A stretch of 64,000 nucleotides of DNA, taken from an uncultured SAR86 cluster bacterium. Its GTDB lineage: Bacteria; Pseudomonadota; Gammaproteobacteria; Magnimaribacterales; AG-339-G14. Both the position numbers and the translations under genes were made by a program. The DNA is taken from assembly GCA_902514765.1 (NCBI GenBank), contig CABXSA010000003.1:2537-66536 (forward strand), written 5' to 3'. The notes below the pieces were generated by a model that did no database searches, was not told where the DNA came from, and saw nothing but the letters and a program-made list of their open reading frames with translations. Every line of letters starts with the position of its first letter. Positions within the stretch are counted from its first letter, which is position 1. Positions 8,687 to 57,148 of the stretch are shown in pieces.

Positions 8687-9931
8687 ATGACAAAAGTTAA
8701 AAACGCCTTCTATGCTCAATCAGGCGGAGTAACAGCTGTAATAAATGCATCTGCATGTGGTGTAATTGAGACTGTAAATAAATCCAAAAAAATACACAAG
8801 GTGCTTGCTGGTGAGAATGGCATCCTTGGTGCTTTAAACGAAGAACTTATAGACACTTCAAAAGAATCTAAAACGAATATTGCAAAACTGAAACAAACTC
8901 CTGGTGGAGCATTTGGTTCTTGCAGATTTAAATTACAGGATCCAATAAAGCAAAAAAAAGAATATGAAAGATTGTTTGAAGTTTTTGCTGCGCACGATAT
9001 TGGATATTTTTTCTATAACGGCGGGGGAGATAGTCAAGATACTACTTTTAAGGTATCCGAAATGGCAAAAAAACTTAAGTTTCCATTGAAATGCATTGGA
9101 ATACCAAAAACAGTTGATAATGATTTGCCTTATACAGACTGCTCACCAGGCTTCGGTTCAGTTGCAAAATACATTGCTACCTCAACTTTAGAAGCTGGAC
9201 TTGATGTCAAAAGCATGGCTGAAACATCAACGAAAATTTTCATTTTGGAAGTCATGGGAAGACATGCAGGATGGATTGCTGCAGCATCCTGTTTAGCTGC
9301 AACTAAAGCAGGTGATCCGCCTCACATTATTTTGCTTCCTGAAGTGCCATTTGAGAAAACTAAATTTATTACTCAGGTCAAACAAACCATTAAAGAGCAA
9401 GGCTATTGTGTCATTGTCGCTTCAGAAGGTACTCAAACAAAAAATGGGAAGTTTTTAGCAGACTCAGGGCTAACGGATGCTTTTGGTCACAAACAGCTTG
9501 GAGGAGTGGCTCCTGTTTTAGCTGGAATGATTTCAAAGATTGGATTAAAAAATCACTGGGCAGTAGCAGATTATCTACAGCGCTCAGCAAGACACATAGC
9601 ATCAAAAACCGATCTAGATCAGGCTTATGCTGTGGGAGAACATGCGGTGAAACTAGCTATAGCTGGAAAGACAGCTTTAATGCCAATTATTAAAAGAACA
9701 AGTAATTCGCCTTATAAATGGAAAATAGTAACTGCGCCTCTAAAAAATGTGGCTAATATTGAAAAAACTATGCCTAAAAAATTTATTTCTAAAAATGGTT
9801 TTGAAATTACTCAAGCAGGAAAAACATATTTAAGCCCTCTAATAAAAGGAGAGGCACCAATAAAATATGTAAATGGCATTCCTGATGTTGCTGAATTAAA
9901 AAAGATAAAAGTGAAAAAGAAATTAAATTAG
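8687..9931 (+). CDS. pfp: 6-phosphofructokinase, probably pyrophosphate-dependent
   Basis: AQSGGVTAVINAS, NGGGDS (Asp at the ATP/PPi specificity position), IPKTVDND (Lys), EVMGRHAGW. Confidence 0.85.
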   Translation: MTKVKNAFYAQSGGVTAVINASACGVIETVNKSKKIHKVLAGENGILGALNEELIDTSKESKTNIAKLKQTPGGAFGSCRFKLQDPIKQKKEYERLFEVFAAHDIGYFFYNGGGDSQDTTFKVSEMAKKLKFPLKCIGIPKTVDNDLPYTDCSPGFGSVAKYIATSTLEAGLDVKSMAETSTKIFILEVMGRHAGWIAAASCLAATKAGDPPHIILLPEVPFEKTKFITQVKQTIKEQGYCVIVASEGTQTKNGKFLADSGLTDAFGHKQLGGVAPVLAGMISKIGLKNHWAVADYLQRSARHIASKTDLDQAYAVGEHAVKLAIAGKTALMPIIKRTSNSPYKWKIVTAPLKNVANIEKTMPKKFISKNGFEITQAGKTYLSPLIKGEAPIKYVNGIPDVAELKKIKVKKKLN

Positions 9932-47436: not shown

Positions 47437-48759
47437 TTAAGTACTGACTGGCTTACCAGCCTCAAGGTTTTCTTGTTCTTCATTGAATAAGATTTTTAAT
47501 TCAGATGAATTTATAGACTCTGTTAGGAAATCGTTTCCAACATTCAATTTGAGATGCCATTCTGACTCTTTGCTGATCTCATCCTTTACACACCCCTCTT
47601 CATAAAGTTTCGCGCGTGTAGCAGATGCGGTATGAGAAACTGAAACCCAGCCTTTAAATAGTCCATTGCTAGTTTGTTCCATTATTTTTTCTTTCAAAGA
47701 TTCAATTCCAATATTTTTTTCTGCTGAAATATAAAGTTCTCCAGGATTTTGAAACTCTAATTCTTGTTGTTTTCCAGCAGGAAGATTATCTACCTTGTTA
47801 TTGACTAAGAGTTGTGGGATATCATCAACGTTTAAGTCTTTTAAAATTCTTAGAACTTCTTTTTGTTTAAGATCTTTTTCCGGATCGTTTACATCGATTA
47901 AGTGAATTAGTAAATCGGCGGACCTGAGATCATCTAAAGTGGTTTTAAAAGATTCAATTAACTCTGTGGGTATTTCTGAAATAAAACCTACTGTATCTGT
48001 AAAAAGTATTGCTCTACTGCCGGGGCTGAGATTTTTCCTCGTAACTGAATCTAAAGTTGCAAAAAGCTGATCGGCTTTATATTCTTCGCCACCCGTTAAA
48101 GCATTGAAAAGTGTTGTTTTGCCTGCATTGGTATAACCAACTAATGCCACTATTTTATTTTTCCCTTTTTTTCTCGCATATCTATTTAAAGATTTTTGAT
48201 TATGGCTTTTTGTAAGTTTCTTCTTAAGTGCTTTGATCCTGTTGCCAATTAATCTTCTATCTGTTTCAAGTTGCGTTTCTCCTGGTCCTCGTAAACCAAT
48301 TCCACCTTTTTGTCTCTCTAAATGGCTCCACCCTCTAACCAGTCTTGTTGCCAAGTGAGATAACTGAGCAAGCTCAACTTGAAGTTTTCCGATGTGACTA
48401 AAAGCACGTTTGGCAAAAATATCCAGGATCAATCCAGTTCTATCTAAAACTCTTGCTTTCAGATAATGCTCGATATTTCTTTCTTGTGATGGCGACAAAG
48501 CATGGTTGAAAATGACTAGATCAATTTTGTCTTTATGCAGTGCTTGCTTGATTTCTTCCAGCTTTCCTTTTTGAATAAAGTATCTGGGTGATGCGAGTTC
48601 CTGCTTTCCTTTGATTTCGCCCAATATATTAGCGCCTGCCGAGCGCGTTAGATCTTTAAACTCTTCAAAAGAGTTTTCAAAATTTAAGATACGTCTAACT
48701 TTCGTAGTTTCTACCTGAACAAGTAGAGCTTTTTCAAAAAAGTTATTTTCGCTTTGCAT
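47437..48759 (-). CDS. hflX: Ribosome-splitting GTPase HflX
   Basis: LSPSQERN, RGPGETQLE, GYTNAGKT, LFATLD, DTVGF. Confidence 0.96.
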   Translation of the reverse strand: MQSENNFFEKALLVQVETTKVRRILNFENSFEEFKDLTRSAGANILGEIKGKQELASPRYFIQKGKLEEIKQALHKDKIDLVIFNHALSPSQERNIEHYLKARVLDRTGLILDIFAKRAFSHIGKLQVELAQLSHLATRLVRGWSHLERQKGGIGLRGPGETQLETDRRLIGNRIKALKKKLTKSHNQKSLNRYARKKGKNKIVALVGYTNAGKTTLFNALTGGEEYKADQLFATLDSVTRKNLSPGSRAILFTDTVGFISEIPTELIESFKTTLDDLRSADLLIHLIDVNDPEKDLKQKEVLRILKDLNVDDIPQLLVNNKVDNLPAGKQQELEFQNPGELYISAEKNIGIESLKEKIMEQTSNGLFKGWVSVSHTASATRAKLYEEGCVKDEISKESEWHLKLNVGNDFLTESINSSELKILFNEEQENLEAGKPVST

Positions 48760-49811
48760 CAAGCTTGCTTAACCTCGAAAACCATATTTGTTCCAGTTCG
48801 AGCTGATTCTCTAACGTGATTAAATCCTGCAGAATTCAAAACATCCGTAAGTCTTTTTGGACCGGCTTGTGCACCCAAACAAAGACCAACATCTTGAGCT
48901 CTAGAAGTAGGAACACATACGATTGTTGAGAAGCCATATGCTAAGCCTCCAAATGTATTCAAATTGTCCTCTAAATTATCCGCTGCAGCTGGCTCCACTA
49001 GCATAAATGTTCCTTCATCAGAAAGAACATTTTTTATGTGGTTGGCAACACCAATAGGATCACCCATATCATGGAGAGCATCAAAAATGCAGGCAAAATC
49101 ATATCCATTATCTGGAATTTCTCTTGCATCAGATACATGGAACTCAATATTATTTAGTCCGAGTTCCTTTGCTCTAGCACTAGCCTCCTCTATAGATGGA
49201 CCGTGAAAATCATAACCGTGAATTGTTGAGTTGGGGTAAGTCTGAGCCATGATGATAGACGTAGAACCTAGCCCGCAACCAATATCTGCGATTTTAGCAC
49301 CAGCTTTAAGCTTGTCTTCAACTCCCGTCAAGGATGGAATCCAATTGCTAACTAAATTTCCAACATAACCAGGTCTGAAAAATCTATCCGTACCGCAAAA
49401 ACAACATAGATGATGTTCTCCCCAAGGTCTTCCTTTTCCCGATTGAAAAGTTTCTACAGCTTTTTCGTGCTCTGCATATTGACCAACTATTGCTTGGAAA
49501 TAACCTTGCAAACAAGTAGGTTCACCGTCTTTGGCAAATACCGCCGCTTGTTCTGGTGAAAGAGAAAATTTATCTTCTGTTGGTTCAAAAGTAACGTAGC
49601 CATTTGCCGCATTGGAAGAAAGAAATTCTCTTAAATATCTTTCATCAAGACCTGCCTTATCTGCTATCTCTTTCACACTTGCTGGGCCTAGTTCATCCAT
49701 TGTCGTATAAACCTTAGATTGATCCCCAATGTAAGCTAGTAACAAACCGACTGCTCCTGCTGCATCGCCTATCACCTTTTGCATTAATTGACTTAATTTT
49801 TCTGCATCCAT
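48759..49811 (-). CDS. Class I SAM methyltransferase with N-terminal winged helix (Rv2258c-like)
   Basis: LDERYLRE, ADIGCGLG, FDALHDMGDP, LGAQAG. Confidence 0.85.
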   Translation of the reverse strand: MDAEKLSQLMQKVIGDAAGAVGLLLAYIGDQSKVYTTMDELGPASVKEIADKAGLDERYLREFLSSNAANGYVTFEPTEDKFSLSPEQAAVFAKDGEPTCLQGYFQAIVGQYAEHEKAVETFQSGKGRPWGEHHLCCFCGTDRFFRPGYVGNLVSNWIPSLTGVEDKLKAGAKIADIGCGLGSTSIIMAQTYPNSTIHGYDFHGPSIEEASARAKELGLNNIEFHVSDAREIPDNGYDFACIFDALHDMGDPIGVANHIKNVLSDEGTFMLVEPAAADNLEDNLNTFGGLAYGFSTIVCVPTSRAQDVGLCLGAQAGPKRLTDVLNSAGFNHVRESARTGTNMVFEVKQA

Positions 49812-53719: not shown

Positions 53720-54328
53720 ATGAGTTATAAGTCAAAACCTTTGCCTCTGACGTTTGTTTGCGCCGCAACCGAAAGCAAGCTTTTCCCTGCCGATTCAGGG
53801 AATGAAATAGCTCTTTGTGGCAGATCAAATTCCGGTAAATCTACCTTAATCAATACTCTGGCTAATCAAAAAAAATTAGCCAAAACATCCAACACTCCGG
53901 GTAGAACTCAATCCATTAATTTCTTTCATTTGGTAAATGATGAGGCAAAAAAAATCATTGATCTGCCAGGTTTTGGCTATGCCAAAGCCAGTAAGCAAGA
54001 TCAAAATGCATGGGCTAAATTGATTTTGAGTTATTTGGAGAAAAGGTCTGCTTTAACTGATTTGATCTTAATCATGGACATGCGCCATCCTTTTCAAAAC
54101 AAAGATCTTGAATTTTTAAATCTTTGTAAATCGCTAAATTTGCCGATTCATTTGGTTTTAACTAAGGCGGATAAACTCAATAACAAAGAATCCCAAACTG
54201 CTCTAAAAGTTGTCTCAGAAAAAATGGCTGACTATCCAGCCATCGTCGATTCAATCGTATTTTCTGCAACCAAAAAAATAGGTTTGGAAACTTTATTAAA
54301 TAAAACTAGACTGCTTTTAGAAGCTTAA
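53720..54328 (+). CDS. engB: Ribosome biogenesis GTPase YihA/EngB
   Basis: GRSNSGKS, TSNTPGRTQ, DLPGFG, TKADK. Confidence 0.96.
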   Translation: MSYKSKPLPLTFVCAATESKLFPADSGNEIALCGRSNSGKSTLINTLANQKKLAKTSNTPGRTQSINFFHLVNDEAKKIIDLPGFGYAKASKQDQNAWAKLILSYLEKRSALTDLILIMDMRHPFQNKDLEFLNLCKSLNLPIHLVLTKADKLNNKESQTALKVVSEKMADYPAIVDSIVFSATKKIGLETLLNKTRLLLEA

Positions 54329-54405
54329 GCCCGTCAGCAATTTTCAGGGGAGAGAGATGCTGACGGGTCATAAGGATTATGTATTTCCTTATTTTTTAGG
54401 AGAAC
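54325..54405 (-). ncRNA. Putative sigmaE-dependent sRNA at the ErsA/Spot42 position
   Basis: Downstream of a consensus sigmaE promoter. Hairpin ATAAGGA/TCCTTAT (54370-54392) and 10-bp GC stem CCCGTCAGCA/TGCTGACGGG (54330-54367) with a CU-rich loop. Ends approximate. Confidence 0.65.
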
Positions 54406-54410
54406 GTTTT

Positions 54411-54437
54411 TTAGACTGAGAATGTTGGAAAAAGTTC
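54411..54437 (-). promoter_or_regulatory. RpoE/AlgU (sigmaE) promoter GAACTT-N16-TCTAA
   Basis: Minus strand reads GAACTT tttccaacattctcag TCTAA, starting 5 nt after the polA stop. Confidence 0.75.
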
Positions 54438-54442
54438 TTGAG

Positions 54443-57148
54443 CTAGTGAGCTTCGCCCCAATTGAGAGCCAAGCCGCTTTCAACTTCCAAAGGTACGTTT
54501 AATTTAGCTGCATCCTGCATTATTTTTGAAACTTCTTGTTCGACTTTAGAAGCATCTTGCTCTTTCACTTCTAATATAACTTCATCGTGAACTTGCATGA
54601 TCATCCTCGCATCAACTTTACCCTTGGCTAACCAGTGATGAATTTCAATCATGGCAATTTTCATTATGTCAGCTGCAGTACCTTGCATGGGGGCATTGAT
54701 CGCTGCGCGCTCAGCTGCCATACGACTGCGACCGCTGTGAATGCCTGGTAAATAAAGTCGTCTGCCAAAAAAGGTTTCAACATAGCCTTTTTCTTTAGCT
54801 AATTCTTTGGTGCGTTCCATATACAACTTTACACCTGGATATTTACGAAAATAAGAATCGATATAATCTGCAGCTAAAGGTCTGGAAATATTCAAAGCTT
54901 TACTAAGACCGAAGGCTGACATACCGTAAATCAAACCAAAGTTAATCGCTTTAGCACCACGACGCTGCTCTGCAGTAACCTCCTCTCCCGGTTCGGCAAA
55001 AACTTCTGCTGCAGTTACAGAATGAATGTCTTCGCCATTTTCAAATGCCGTAATCAAACCTTTATCTTCAGAAAGATGAGCCATGATACGCAATTCAATT
55101 TGCGAATAATCAACCGCCAGTAATTGATAACCCTTGGGAGCGACAAAAGCCGTTCTGATCAGCCTGCCTTCATCGGTTTTGATTGGGATGTTTTGTAAAT
55201 TGGGATCGGCAGAAGACAACCTTCCAGTTGAAGTCACGGCCTGGTGGAAAGAGGTATGCACTCGGCCAGTTTTTTTGGATATTTGTTGCGGCAAACTATC
55301 GGTATAAGTGCTTTTCAATTTTGCCAAAGTACGATGTTCTAAAAGAATTTTTGGTAATTCGTAATGACTAGCCAATTCTTGTAAGACCGATTCATCGGTA
55401 GAGGGTTGCCCGCCAGGAGTTTTTTTCACTACCGGCAATTCCATCTCATCAAAAAAGATCGCTCTGAGATCTTTAGTAGACGCCAAGTTAAATTCTTTGC
55501 CTGCTTCTCGATAAGCCTGTTCTTCGAGGCCGCTGATGCGTTGTCCTAAATTATTGGATTGAACTTTTAACGACTCTTCATTCACTAAAGCTCCAGCCTG
55601 TTCTATATCGGAAAGCACCGGTACCAAAGGCAATTCAATTTCGTGTAAAACTTTTTCTAAAGAAGGCGTCTTTGCCAAAGCCGGTTTCAAATGGGAGTAG
55701 CAACGAAAAGTGATATCTGCATCTTCTGCTGCATAATCACTCGCTTTTTCCAAAGGTATCTGATTGAAAGTCAGTTGTTTAACGCCTTTGCCAGCGACGT
55801 CTTCAAAAGTTGTGGTTTTTACATTTAAATAATGACTCGCCATGGCATCCAAATTATGGCGGGTTGCCGTTGGATCATAGACATAAGACATCAGCATGGT
55901 GTCGTTTTCAATAGCATTCAAATGAATGTCGTAATTTGCTAAAACATTGCGATCGAATTTTAAATGTTGACCAATAAGAGGGGTGTTCTCAATGATTGGT
56001 TTGAGTTTTTTTAAAACCTCGTCTCGATTAAGTTGTTTGGGCGCACCCTCATAATCGTGACCAACTGGAATGTAGTAAGCATTATCTTCATCCGTTGCAA
56101 CTGATAAGCCCACCAAGTTGGCTTGGGTAAAATCCAAGGAATCTGTTTCGGTATCAAAAGCCAAAACTTTAGCTTTTTTCAATTCCTTTATCAGCTCATC
56201 CAATTCTTTATTGGTCAGTATGGCGCGATAATTGTCTTTTGAAACCGAGCCATTAGAGCTTGTTGCTGGAGTTTTTTTAGTTTCTGCGGTTTTTAATAAA
56301 GTTTTAAATTCCATATCAGAAAATAGCTTATGCAATTCAGCTTGATCGGTTTCCCCTACGGCTAAGTCTTCAATCCCGAAATCCAAGGTAACGTCTTTTT
56401 TAATGGTGGTTAGTTGTTGGGAAAGTTTGAGCTGCTCAATGCCTTCTCGTAAATATTCGCCAACTTTGCCGGTAATTTCTTCAGCTTTTTCAATGATGGT
56501 TTCAACCGTTCCATACTTGCCAAGCCAATTGACAGCAGTTTTGGGACCTACTTTATTTACCCCTGGAATGTTATCCGAAGTATCCCCAACAAGTGCCAAG
56601 TAATCGATGATTTGTTCTGGGGTTACGCCAAACTTTTTCTCGACGCCTTGTTGGTCCAGGACTTCATTGGTCATGGTATTCACCAATTTGATATTTTTGG
56701 TTACGAGTTGTGCCAAATCTTTGTCGCCAGTGGAAATCACAGTCGAAATACCCTTTTCTTCTGCTTGCTTGGCAAGCGTGCCAATCACATCATCTGCCTC
56801 AACGTTATCGACTACAAAAATCTTAATACCCAAGGCCTCAACAATGTCATAAATGGGTTGAATTTGTGGACGCAAATCTTCTGGCATCGGCGGTCGATTG
56901 GCTTTGTATTCTTTATACATGTCGTGGCGAAAAGTATCGCCTTTGGCATCGAAGATCATCCCAATGGGAGAATTTGGATGGTCTTCTAAAATTCGCATCA
57001 CCATAGTGGTTACTCCTCTTACAGCGCCAGTTGGCTGGCCCGTAGAAGTCGTTAAGGGCGGCAAAGCATGGTAAGCACGATATACATATGAAGATCCATC
57101 GATGAGAATAACGGAGTCGGTATCTGCGGTGCTTTCTGGTTTAGCCAT
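54443..57148 (-). CDS. polA: DNA polymerase I
   Basis: LIDGSS..YRAYH, 3'-5' exonuclease FDTET...YAAEDAD intact, TGRLSS.DPNLQNIP, DYSQIELR, QVHDE. Confidence 0.98.
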   Translation of the reverse strand: MAKPESTADTDSVILIDGSSYVYRAYHALPPLTTSTGQPTGAVRGVTTMVMRILEDHPNSPIGMIFDAKGDTFRHDMYKEYKANRPPMPEDLRPQIQPIYDIVEALGIKIFVVDNVEADDVIGTLAKQAEEKGISTVISTGDKDLAQLVTKNIKLVNTMTNEVLDQQGVEKKFGVTPEQIIDYLALVGDTSDNIPGVNKVGPKTAVNWLGKYGTVETIIEKAEEITGKVGEYLREGIEQLKLSQQLTTIKKDVTLDFGIEDLAVGETDQAELHKLFSDMEFKTLLKTAETKKTPATSSNGSVSKDNYRAILTNKELDELIKELKKAKVLAFDTETDSLDFTQANLVGLSVATDEDNAYYIPVGHDYEGAPKQLNRDEVLKKLKPIIENTPLIGQHLKFDRNVLANYDIHLNAIENDTMLMSYVYDPTATRHNLDAMASHYLNVKTTTFEDVAGKGVKQLTFNQIPLEKASDYAAEDADITFRCYSHLKPALAKTPSLEKVLHEIELPLVPVLSDIEQAGALVNEESLKVQSNNLGQRISGLEEQAYREAGKEFNLASTKDLRAIFFDEMELPVVKKTPGGQPSTDESVLQELASHYELPKILLEHRTLAKLKSTYTDSLPQQISKKTGRVHTSFHQAVTSTGRLSSADPNLQNIPIKTDEGRLIRTAFVAPKGYQLLAVDYSQIELRIMAHLSEDKGLITAFENGEDIHSVTAAEVFAEPGEEVTAEQRRGAKAINFGLIYGMSAFGLSKALNISRPLAADYIDSYFRKYPGVKLYMERTKELAKEKGYVETFFGRRLYLPGIHSGRSRMAAERAAINAPMQGTAADIMKIAMIEIHHWLAKGKVDARMIMQVHDEVILEVKEQDASKVEQEVSKIMQDAAKLNVPLEVESGLALNWGEAH

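Follow-up and report, generated by a model that had tools for sequence, protein, structure and literature searches.

Four known small RNAs bear on the slot between polA and engB: anti-hemB, sX13, ErsA (which lies between these very two genes) and Spot 42 (RF00021). Spot 42, encoded by spf, occupies the polA-engB slot, is repressed by CRP-cAMP and depends on Hfq (PMC3295665; bioRxiv 10.64898/2026.07.10.737749). The sX13 RNA of Xanthomonadaceae (RF02232) is encoded 3' of polA and carries C-rich loops that act on G-rich motifs near translation starts, Hfq being dispensable for its action; the same work raises the question of sX13-like RNAs at polA in other bacteria (PMC3771888). ErsA is sigma22-dependent and pairs through a CCU seed with the ribosome-binding site (PMC7565897, PMC13613067); its targets include the outer-membrane genes oprD and mlaA (PMC7565897, PMC13613067, PMC5819304), and its repression of mlaA requires Hfq (PMC13613067). 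Anti-hemB (RF02837) includes ncS04 of Burkholderia cenocepacia, an RNA of 105 nt that is listed as expressed (PMC1950547, PMC5688073), the strand ambiguity of hemB/anti-hemB has already been noted (PMC1950547), and a further source is bioRxiv 10.64898/2026.09.01.748597. As regards SAR86 itself, the non-coding RNA described in PMC3358033 is placed in a carbon-assimilation region. In the literature searched, with most subscription journals lying outside that search, SAR86 was found together with Hfq or small RNAs merely in passing mentions, and no publication was found that describes the RNA reported here or the loss of hfq in SAR86, nor any that treats both ErsA and sX13.

The locus to be compared with these lies in a window of 64,000 nucleotides (the whole stretch of DNA that was analysed), taken from a genome of 902,813 bases with 34.7% G+C that is 68% complete. 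The RNA runs holding this stretch are marine. Among the host genes are a bacterial rhodopsin and six TonB-dependent receptors (relatives have 7-20), features that fit SAR86 as described in PMC3358033. In the window, engB (stop at 54328, plus strand) and polA (stop at 54443, minus strand) converge on an intergenic gap of 114 nt, and both this gap and the GAACTT-N16-TCTAA boxes that the initial annotation had claimed for its minus strand were confirmed at the coordinates collected in Table 1. The name engB follows from synteny and is to that extent presumed. The 140 convergent gene pairs of this genome have a median gap of 1 nt, with 22 gaps of at least 100 nt; since genomes of about one million bases with a 1-base median convergent gap keep little non-coding DNA, real selection on whatever occupies this gap is indicated. 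It is very probable that the element listed there is a conserved non-coding RNA gene.

Table 1 Features of the polA-engB locus, in window coordinates.
Feature	Position	Strand	Basis or remark
polA, DNA polymerase I	54443..57148	-	ORF; Pfam DNA_pol_A, E 1e-156; upstream neighbour, on the RNA's strand
engB/yihA-type GTPase	53720..54328	+	ORF; Pfam MMR_HSR1; convergent neighbour
sigmaE-type -35 box GAACTT	54432..54437	-	identical in 12/12 other genus members compared
sigmaE-type -10 box TCTAA	54411..54415	-	16 nt from the -35 box
Predicted small RNA, about 80 nt	54325..54405	-	fold z = -6.05; conservation
5' CU-rich motif UUCUCCUAA	54396..54404	-	predicted seed against Shine-Dalgarno sites
Small 7-bp hairpin, variable loop of 4-9 nt	54370..54392	-	fold
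Large 10-bp hairpin	54330..54367	-	arms 54367-54358 / 54339-54330; 98.9% of cells paired
18-nt loop holding UCUCUCUCCCCU / CUCUCCCCU	54340..54357	-	second predicted seed; 94% identity in genus
3' tail CUUAAG	54324..54329	-	without U-run; overlaps engB stop codon

The minus strand of the element folds better than any of 200 shuffled sequences (0/200 as good), and the opposite strand folds too (z = -5.14). The initial annotation had described some 80 nt with a CU motif and two hairpins, and these elements are all present, with one point to be amended: the minimum-energy fold for this genome pairs the UCCU of the 5' motif with the AGGA of the small hairpin (unpaired probability of the seed 0.65). 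Eight other genus members do form the 7-bp hairpin, their seed being predicted to be unpaired with probabilities of 0.78-0.95. The RNA would probably start 5-6 nt past the -10 box, to judge from the spacing; its 3' end is uncertain. The tail, already called weak in the initial annotation, has no U-run, no terminator-like site was called at the 3' end of the element, and there is no intrinsic terminator and no U-run on either side of the hairpins, the larger of which directly adjoins the engB stop codon.

Conservation is what gives these elements their weight. The proposal that the polA-engB locus holds a conserved, miniaturised RNA gene behind a sigmaE-type promoter is borne out in 33 of 37 genomes of the family (this one included), 26 with the present form (type A) and 7 with a related form; by genus these are 15/17 in g1, 7/7 in g2, 4/6 in g4 and 7/7 in g3, and of the four genomes without the element three gave no locus match and in one the contig ends there. 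In a comparison with 12 relatives in g1, identity is 100% for the two promoter boxes, for the 5' motif of 9 nt and for each arm of the stem, as against 94% for the loop, 82% for the promoter spacer and 64% for third codon positions of polA. The sequence UUCUCCU is invariant in 18/18 aligned copies, and the small hairpin forms a helix of 6-8 pairs in all 18, with outer pairs that vary between genera. In g2 and g4 the sequence of the large stem differs and yet pairs (Table 1 gives the figure over 18 copies), and across three genera 5 of its 10 pairs have changed on both sides; these compensatory changes, which answer to the covariation looked for on the strength of the initial annotation, amount to only about two or three lineage-level events, and five changed pairs are reached by 69 of 500 shuffles. 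The loops of the three genera hold CUCCCC or CUCCUCC. The g3 form has the same type of promoter, a single-stranded CU-rich region, a U-run, and a hairpin whose loop is C-rich.

The unit is also independent of either neighbour. In one genome (G005, contig C9, L125:185-997) a gene for a 271-residue PhyH-family dioxygenase stands between polA and the promoter, and in g2 engB does not directly follow the element in any of the 7 genomes; promoter and RNA stay together despite such insertions. A search pattern with 16-17 nt before GTC gave 7 matches, 4 of them true g4-type copies, and missed the common 15-nt spacing; a scan of 61 relatives allowed that 15-nt spacing, with a CCCC window too short for type-A copies, and viral contigs gave 0 matches to the pattern including it.

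In family f2 a reduced version lies opposite the 3' end of engB in 6 of 8 genomes (1 not examined, 1 without an engB match). Some f2 forms (L224-L227, L471, G055:C4:62479-62554) are even shorter than the present one, that of genus g8 being without a U-tail, and some consist of a promoter, an AU-rich leader and a single hairpin with a CCCCAA loop. A run of at least four U after the last hairpin is absent from the 7 type-A copies shown and from g8; the run is kept in g3, g5 and g10, and has 5-7 U in g3 and in 3/5 f2 copies. At the polA and engB flanks examined in families f3 and f4 no element was found. As a separate observation, 5 of 8 f3 genomes have another CU-rich element with a sigmaE promoter, lying 3' of a prepilin-peptidase gene (L465, L467, L468 and L469, which are G041:C1:483467-483535, G053:C2:236068-236133, G047:C2:243811-243877 and G056:C3:254156-254225; a further copy is at G038:C2:86891-86958). 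It combines an intrinsic terminator with a nested hairpin in which UCCUCU and UCCCCU occur, matches nothing in Rfam and only weakly a covariance model of the class-wide RNAs introduced below (R2, E 0.69), and is possibly a relocated or an independent envelope-stress RNA; with a sigmaE-promoter, CU-rich element thus present elsewhere in f3, the description of the RNA as lost in that family was dropped.

As to the promoter, the pattern GAACTT/TCTAA does not by itself reach significance within the window (2 matches against 0.49 expected; 9/100 shuffles reach 2), and its weight comes instead from the conservation of the boxes and from their position outside ORFs. The second match in the window lies at 8843-8871 on the plus strand, with an 18-nt spacer. 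Genome-wide, the strict pattern has 16 sites, of which the element's is the only one outside a called ORF. The relaxed motif also has 16 copies, comprising those at the element, at rpoE, at the largest sigma-factor gene and at one more non-ORF position, together with 12 within ORFs; the copy at rpoE (L033:1192-1810, G000:C20) ends 13 nt before the start codon and has the box GAACTT, as at the element, and a similar motif stands 59 nt before the largest sigma-factor gene. In the 30 type-A copies examined the boxes always stand 16 or 17 nt apart, and no sigma70-type site was called in 54200-54600. An rpoE gene, which the initial annotation had needed to be present, was indeed found, adjacent to rseA-like and degP-like genes (the degP label coming from a reading of the sequence) and carrying the same promoter motif. 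This RpoE scores 209.8 bits against TIGR02939, below the cut-off of 236; an RpoE-like protein was found in 56/61 relatives, in every case below that cut-off. Autoregulation of rpoE through its own promoter is established, so that the recurrence of the motif in front of rpoE supports reading the boxes at the element as those of sigmaE, by which the element would then be transcribed. Eight RNA-library runs (of 21 listed) gave contigs with a depth of about 2-6 over the element, several of them crossing the promoter and the neighbouring genes; because such contigs carry neither strand nor ends nor level, they count neither for nor against transcription.

Where this RNA comes from can be approached through the rest of the class, in which polA was matched in 142 other genomes and its 3' flank was read in 90 of them. 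Many of these flanks hold an RNA-like unit of 100-140 nt behind a sigmaE-type promoter: it comprises a short hairpin, two hairpins with CUCCCU and CCCC in their respective loops, and a terminator whose loop is C-rich. A model (R1) finds 32 of the 90 loci, on 21 of which it had been trained. Of the 31 complete loci, 28 have a sigmaE-type motif upstream when a loose pattern is applied. In every one of the 31, the nine bases that follow the last helix include 5-9 U, a figure biased by the choice of a training set with U-runs; in the three-helix structure 22/24 pairs change on both sides, as judged in a model-fitted alignment. Another model, R2, was built from the 32 loci without any genome of this order. 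It recognises the g3 form at an E of about 2e-5, and lands on the element in 15/16 carrier loci of the order at E up to 7.3, the present copy scoring 6.8 bits (E 7.3, chance level) with the last model hairpin falling weakly on the large hairpin; R1 gives no match to this copy. Homology of this copy accordingly depends not on its own score but on the locus, strand, sigmaE-type promoter and terminal hairpin with a C-rich loop that it shares with the class-wide RNA, and on the bridge provided by g3. Its large hairpin is likely to be the homologue of the terminal hairpin of the class-wide RNA, and the whole would be a descendant of the polA-engB RNA that has four hairpins in other Gammaproteobacteria, having lost hairpins as well as the U-tail. 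An anti-AUG sequence adjoining the CU motifs is no more frequent class-wide than chance allows (11/31 against 11.5 expected). At one class-level locus (L166, G177:C1:91326-91926) polA is separated from the RNA-like element by arrays of short tandem repeats of 8-9 nt.

The absence of a U-tail has to be seen together with what was found for RNA chaperones. Pfam Hfq was found in 0/61 genomes of the order, 37 of which are at least 90% complete, and ProQ likewise in 0/61; a profile search without filters gave no hfq match in this genome. The same Hfq search gave 131/151 genomes class-wide (a tally including two unpublished ones) and was positive in 32/32 carriers of the long RNA, and of the 7 Hfq-negative genomes among the 90 loci none carries the long RNA. 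The gene hfq usually sits directly after miaA, and in the five genomes of the order examined (L240-L244) miaA stands directly before hflX (G043) or hflK (G000, G017, G019, G021). The hflX gene of the window (47437-48762) stands apart, after a methyltransferase-like gene. Hfq binds the U-tails of terminators, and loss of the U-tail may therefore be linked to loss of hfq, a link that would be incomplete in that g3, g5 and g10 keep the U-run. Hfq-assisted pairing of the ErsA kind is not indicated here, and with no hfq found in the order the RNA would have to block ribosome-binding sites unaided.

What such an RNA might do can be set out as follows. Envelope stress would free RpoE, and transcription by RpoE, starting close to 54405, would give an RNA of about 80 nt. 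This RNA would pair with Shine-Dalgarno (SD) sites through two exposed CU-rich stretches, the 5' leader and the C-rich loop, so blocking ribosome entry and lowering translation with no need for Hfq, and the likely targets would be mRNAs of secreted and outer-membrane proteins. That the element is a sigmaE-driven RNA of about 80 nt pairing with SD sites without Hfq, with putative envelope targets, is considered probable, if with appreciable reservations; the doubt beyond the RNA gene itself lies in the mode of pairing and the class of target. Repression at SD sites is predicted from models of pairing, for which a crude caller of genes and signal peptides supplied 885 genes, 112 of them secreted-like. 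The 50 best predicted partners of the 5' seed include 13 secreted-like genes against 6.3 expected (p = 0.006), and those of a generic anti-SD core 6; flank-shuffled seeds that keep CUCCU reach 13 in 11/100 trials. With the single-stranded region of the g3 form the number is 14, reached by 0/100 shuffles, and this region is complementary to an SD sequence, spacer, AUG and two lysine codons in register. A perfect 14-nt complement to the 5' motif covers the SD of two secreted-type genes (2/885 start windows against 0.009 expected, the 14-mer having been picked after the fact), whose proteins have no Pfam families; one of these sites is kept in an orthologue of 57% identity.

For the loop, two TonB receptors rank 4th and 5th of 885, as good a result being given by 0/60 loop shuffles, and these sites are kept across g1; they are strong generic SD sites as well, and for the six TonB receptors as a group the shift in rank is not significant (p = 0.06-0.13). 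Across 10 genomes a 12-mer seed complement is not enriched over its reversed control; its exact match falls at 0 secreted-gene starts in g2 and g4. G-runs in the ribosome-binding region are found in 19/50 receptor genes of f3 and f4 (where no element was found at the locus) and in 22/57 of f1 and f2, a comparison weakened by the other sigmaE-promoter, CU-rich element of f3; regrouped after the fact as f4 against the rest, the test is not significant either (p = 0.10). Co-variation of receptor SD and loop across genera is suggestive for one receptor family (g1, g4) and absent for the other. Counted overall, a GGGG run occurs in this region in 41/107 receptor genes of four families (loci L320-L439, G000), the background being 25/885 genes in G000 only. 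An envelope bias of the predicted targets is plausible on these figures.

Such mixed target controls leave room for a real sigmaE-driven RNA that instead binds a protein or the ribosome, or has targets outside the envelope, its anti-SD appearance being ancestral. A closing helix may, moreover, hold part of the 5' motif in two genera (g2 and g4, where the motif is predicted to be partly paired with the 3' tail, unpaired 0.14-0.55), no chaperone was found that might aid pairing, and for anti-hemB a function is not established in the available parts of PMC1950547, PMC5688073 and bioRxiv 10.64898/2026.09.01.748597. This is nevertheless unlikely, given that the invariant, unpaired CU motifs resemble those with which sX13 and ErsA pair with ribosome-binding sites, and that the g3 form, with its complementarity to SD, AUG and lysine codons, enriches secreted-like genes here (14/50). 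Less credible again, and indeed improbable, is that the hairpins are simply a shared terminator or 3'-end protection for polA and engB, with boxes that are incidental or serve antisense control of engB. The position between convergent genes and the folding of both strands would suit such a role; what speaks against a plain bidirectional terminator, which had been the alternative named in the initial annotation, is the lack of a U-run on either side, a conservation of promoter, 5' motif and loop greater than a terminator would call for, the persistence of the unit where polA or engB has moved away, and the sigmaE-type motif preceding 28/31 class-wide homologues. A terminator-like hairpin inside engB (54244-54223) is broken in several genus members and hence not conserved.

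It might also be supposed that the conserved DNA encodes a short peptide, alone or in addition to the RNA, on the strand of engB, with the sigmaE transcript as its antisense regulator. A reading frame on that strand does exist in 30/30 type-A copies (FLGE being kept in 27/30); opposite the loop there is an SD-like G-run, after which comes a start codon that lies inside the stem and is so sequestered (unpaired 0.00-0.27); and hemB/anti-hemB offers a precedent for strand ambiguity (PMC1950547). Against this, one-base indels make the frame vary between 13 and 37 codons in a single genus, the N-terminal halves are unrelated between genera, and the peptide in g3 is another one, 9-13 residues long and ending at variable stops. 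The promoter search called no site on the plus strand, and an anti-SD loop will always resemble an SD when read from the other strand, all of which makes this very improbable. In this genome the frame is at 54357-54419 (+), with 20 codons, an SD-like G-run and a sequestered AUG. A CsrA sponge was rejected: the element has a single GGA, within a stem, and a CsrA sequence motif has 0 matches in this 68%-complete genome.

Returning to the sigmaE-driven RNA that would pair with SD sites, what is new is that such an RNA is retained in an order whose 61 genomes gave neither an Hfq nor a ProQ match and in which miaA stands directly before hflX or hflK in the five genomes examined, and that the present form has no U-tail. 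A wider reading, put forward tentatively as a possibility that may well prove wrong, is that a whole order of streamlined marine Gammaproteobacteria, presumably SAR86, deleted hfq yet kept the RNA arm of its sigmaE response, the ancestral RNA having been shortened differently in each lineage, with the U-tail lost at least twice, and having come to repress secreted-protein and TonB-receptor mRNAs without a chaperone by way of its anti-SD motifs. If true, this would be a natural experiment in how an RNA of the Hfq era turns Hfq-independent, with a trans-acting stress RNA working in a gammaproteobacterium that has neither Hfq nor ProQ; the need for a chaperone could be tested by setting the long, Hfq-era form against several independently shortened ones, and there would be a first handle on envelope control in an abundant marine lineage rich in TonB receptors.

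It remains to place the element among the RNAs described at the outset. By Rfam, nothing in the window reaches a gathering score, three matches on the element at E up to 10 being at chance level, and this copy matches none of the models for anti-hemB, sX13, ErsA and Spot 42. Kinship with Spot 42 and membership of ErsA, the two RNAs named in the initial annotation, are not supported: Spot 42 has no Rfam match at E up to 10 in 54200-54560, and RF01719 has none in the window, at E up to 10 in the same interval, or genome-wide. With Spot 42 only the slot is held in common, the element differing in its sigmaE-type promoter and showing no sequence or model match. With ErsA it has in common a promoter of the sigma22/sigmaE type, and rpoE is present in this genome, so far as sequence can tell; the RF01719 model has 116 positions, however, against about 80 nt here, and class-wide it matches 3/151 genomes, weakly (30-34 bits, cut-off 50) and in each case between polA and engB.

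The longer, class-wide relatives at the polA flank score best to anti-hemB (RF02837; PMC1950547, PMC5688073), with one at 49.8 bits, over the cut-off of 49.5, and ten more at 24-47, and after that to ErsA and sX13, two of them giving 25-27 bits to RF02232. Neither this copy nor 9 carrier loci of the order, these searched at E up to 2, match the anti-hemB model. CU-rich loops and a C-rich terminal hairpin are common to the class-wide anti-hemB-like RNAs and the element, which differs in having about 80 nt and two hairpins rather than three or four, its first CU motif in the 5' leader instead of in a loop, no U-tail, and a sigmaE promoter, a feature that goes unmentioned for anti-hemB in the available parts of PMC1950547 and PMC5688073. 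In the case of sX13 both RNAs are encoded 3' of polA, but sX13 has 115 nt and three C-rich stem-loops in a host with hfq, whereas here there is one C-rich loop with one CU-rich leader and no hfq was found; sigmaE control, suggested here by the type of promoter, is unmentioned for sX13 in the available part of PMC3771888. The element is thus nearer to the anti-hemB- and sX13-like RNAs than to the others of this slot, sX13 is by analogy the best functional model for it, and it supports linking anti-hemB, sX13 and ErsA as one family defined by locus.
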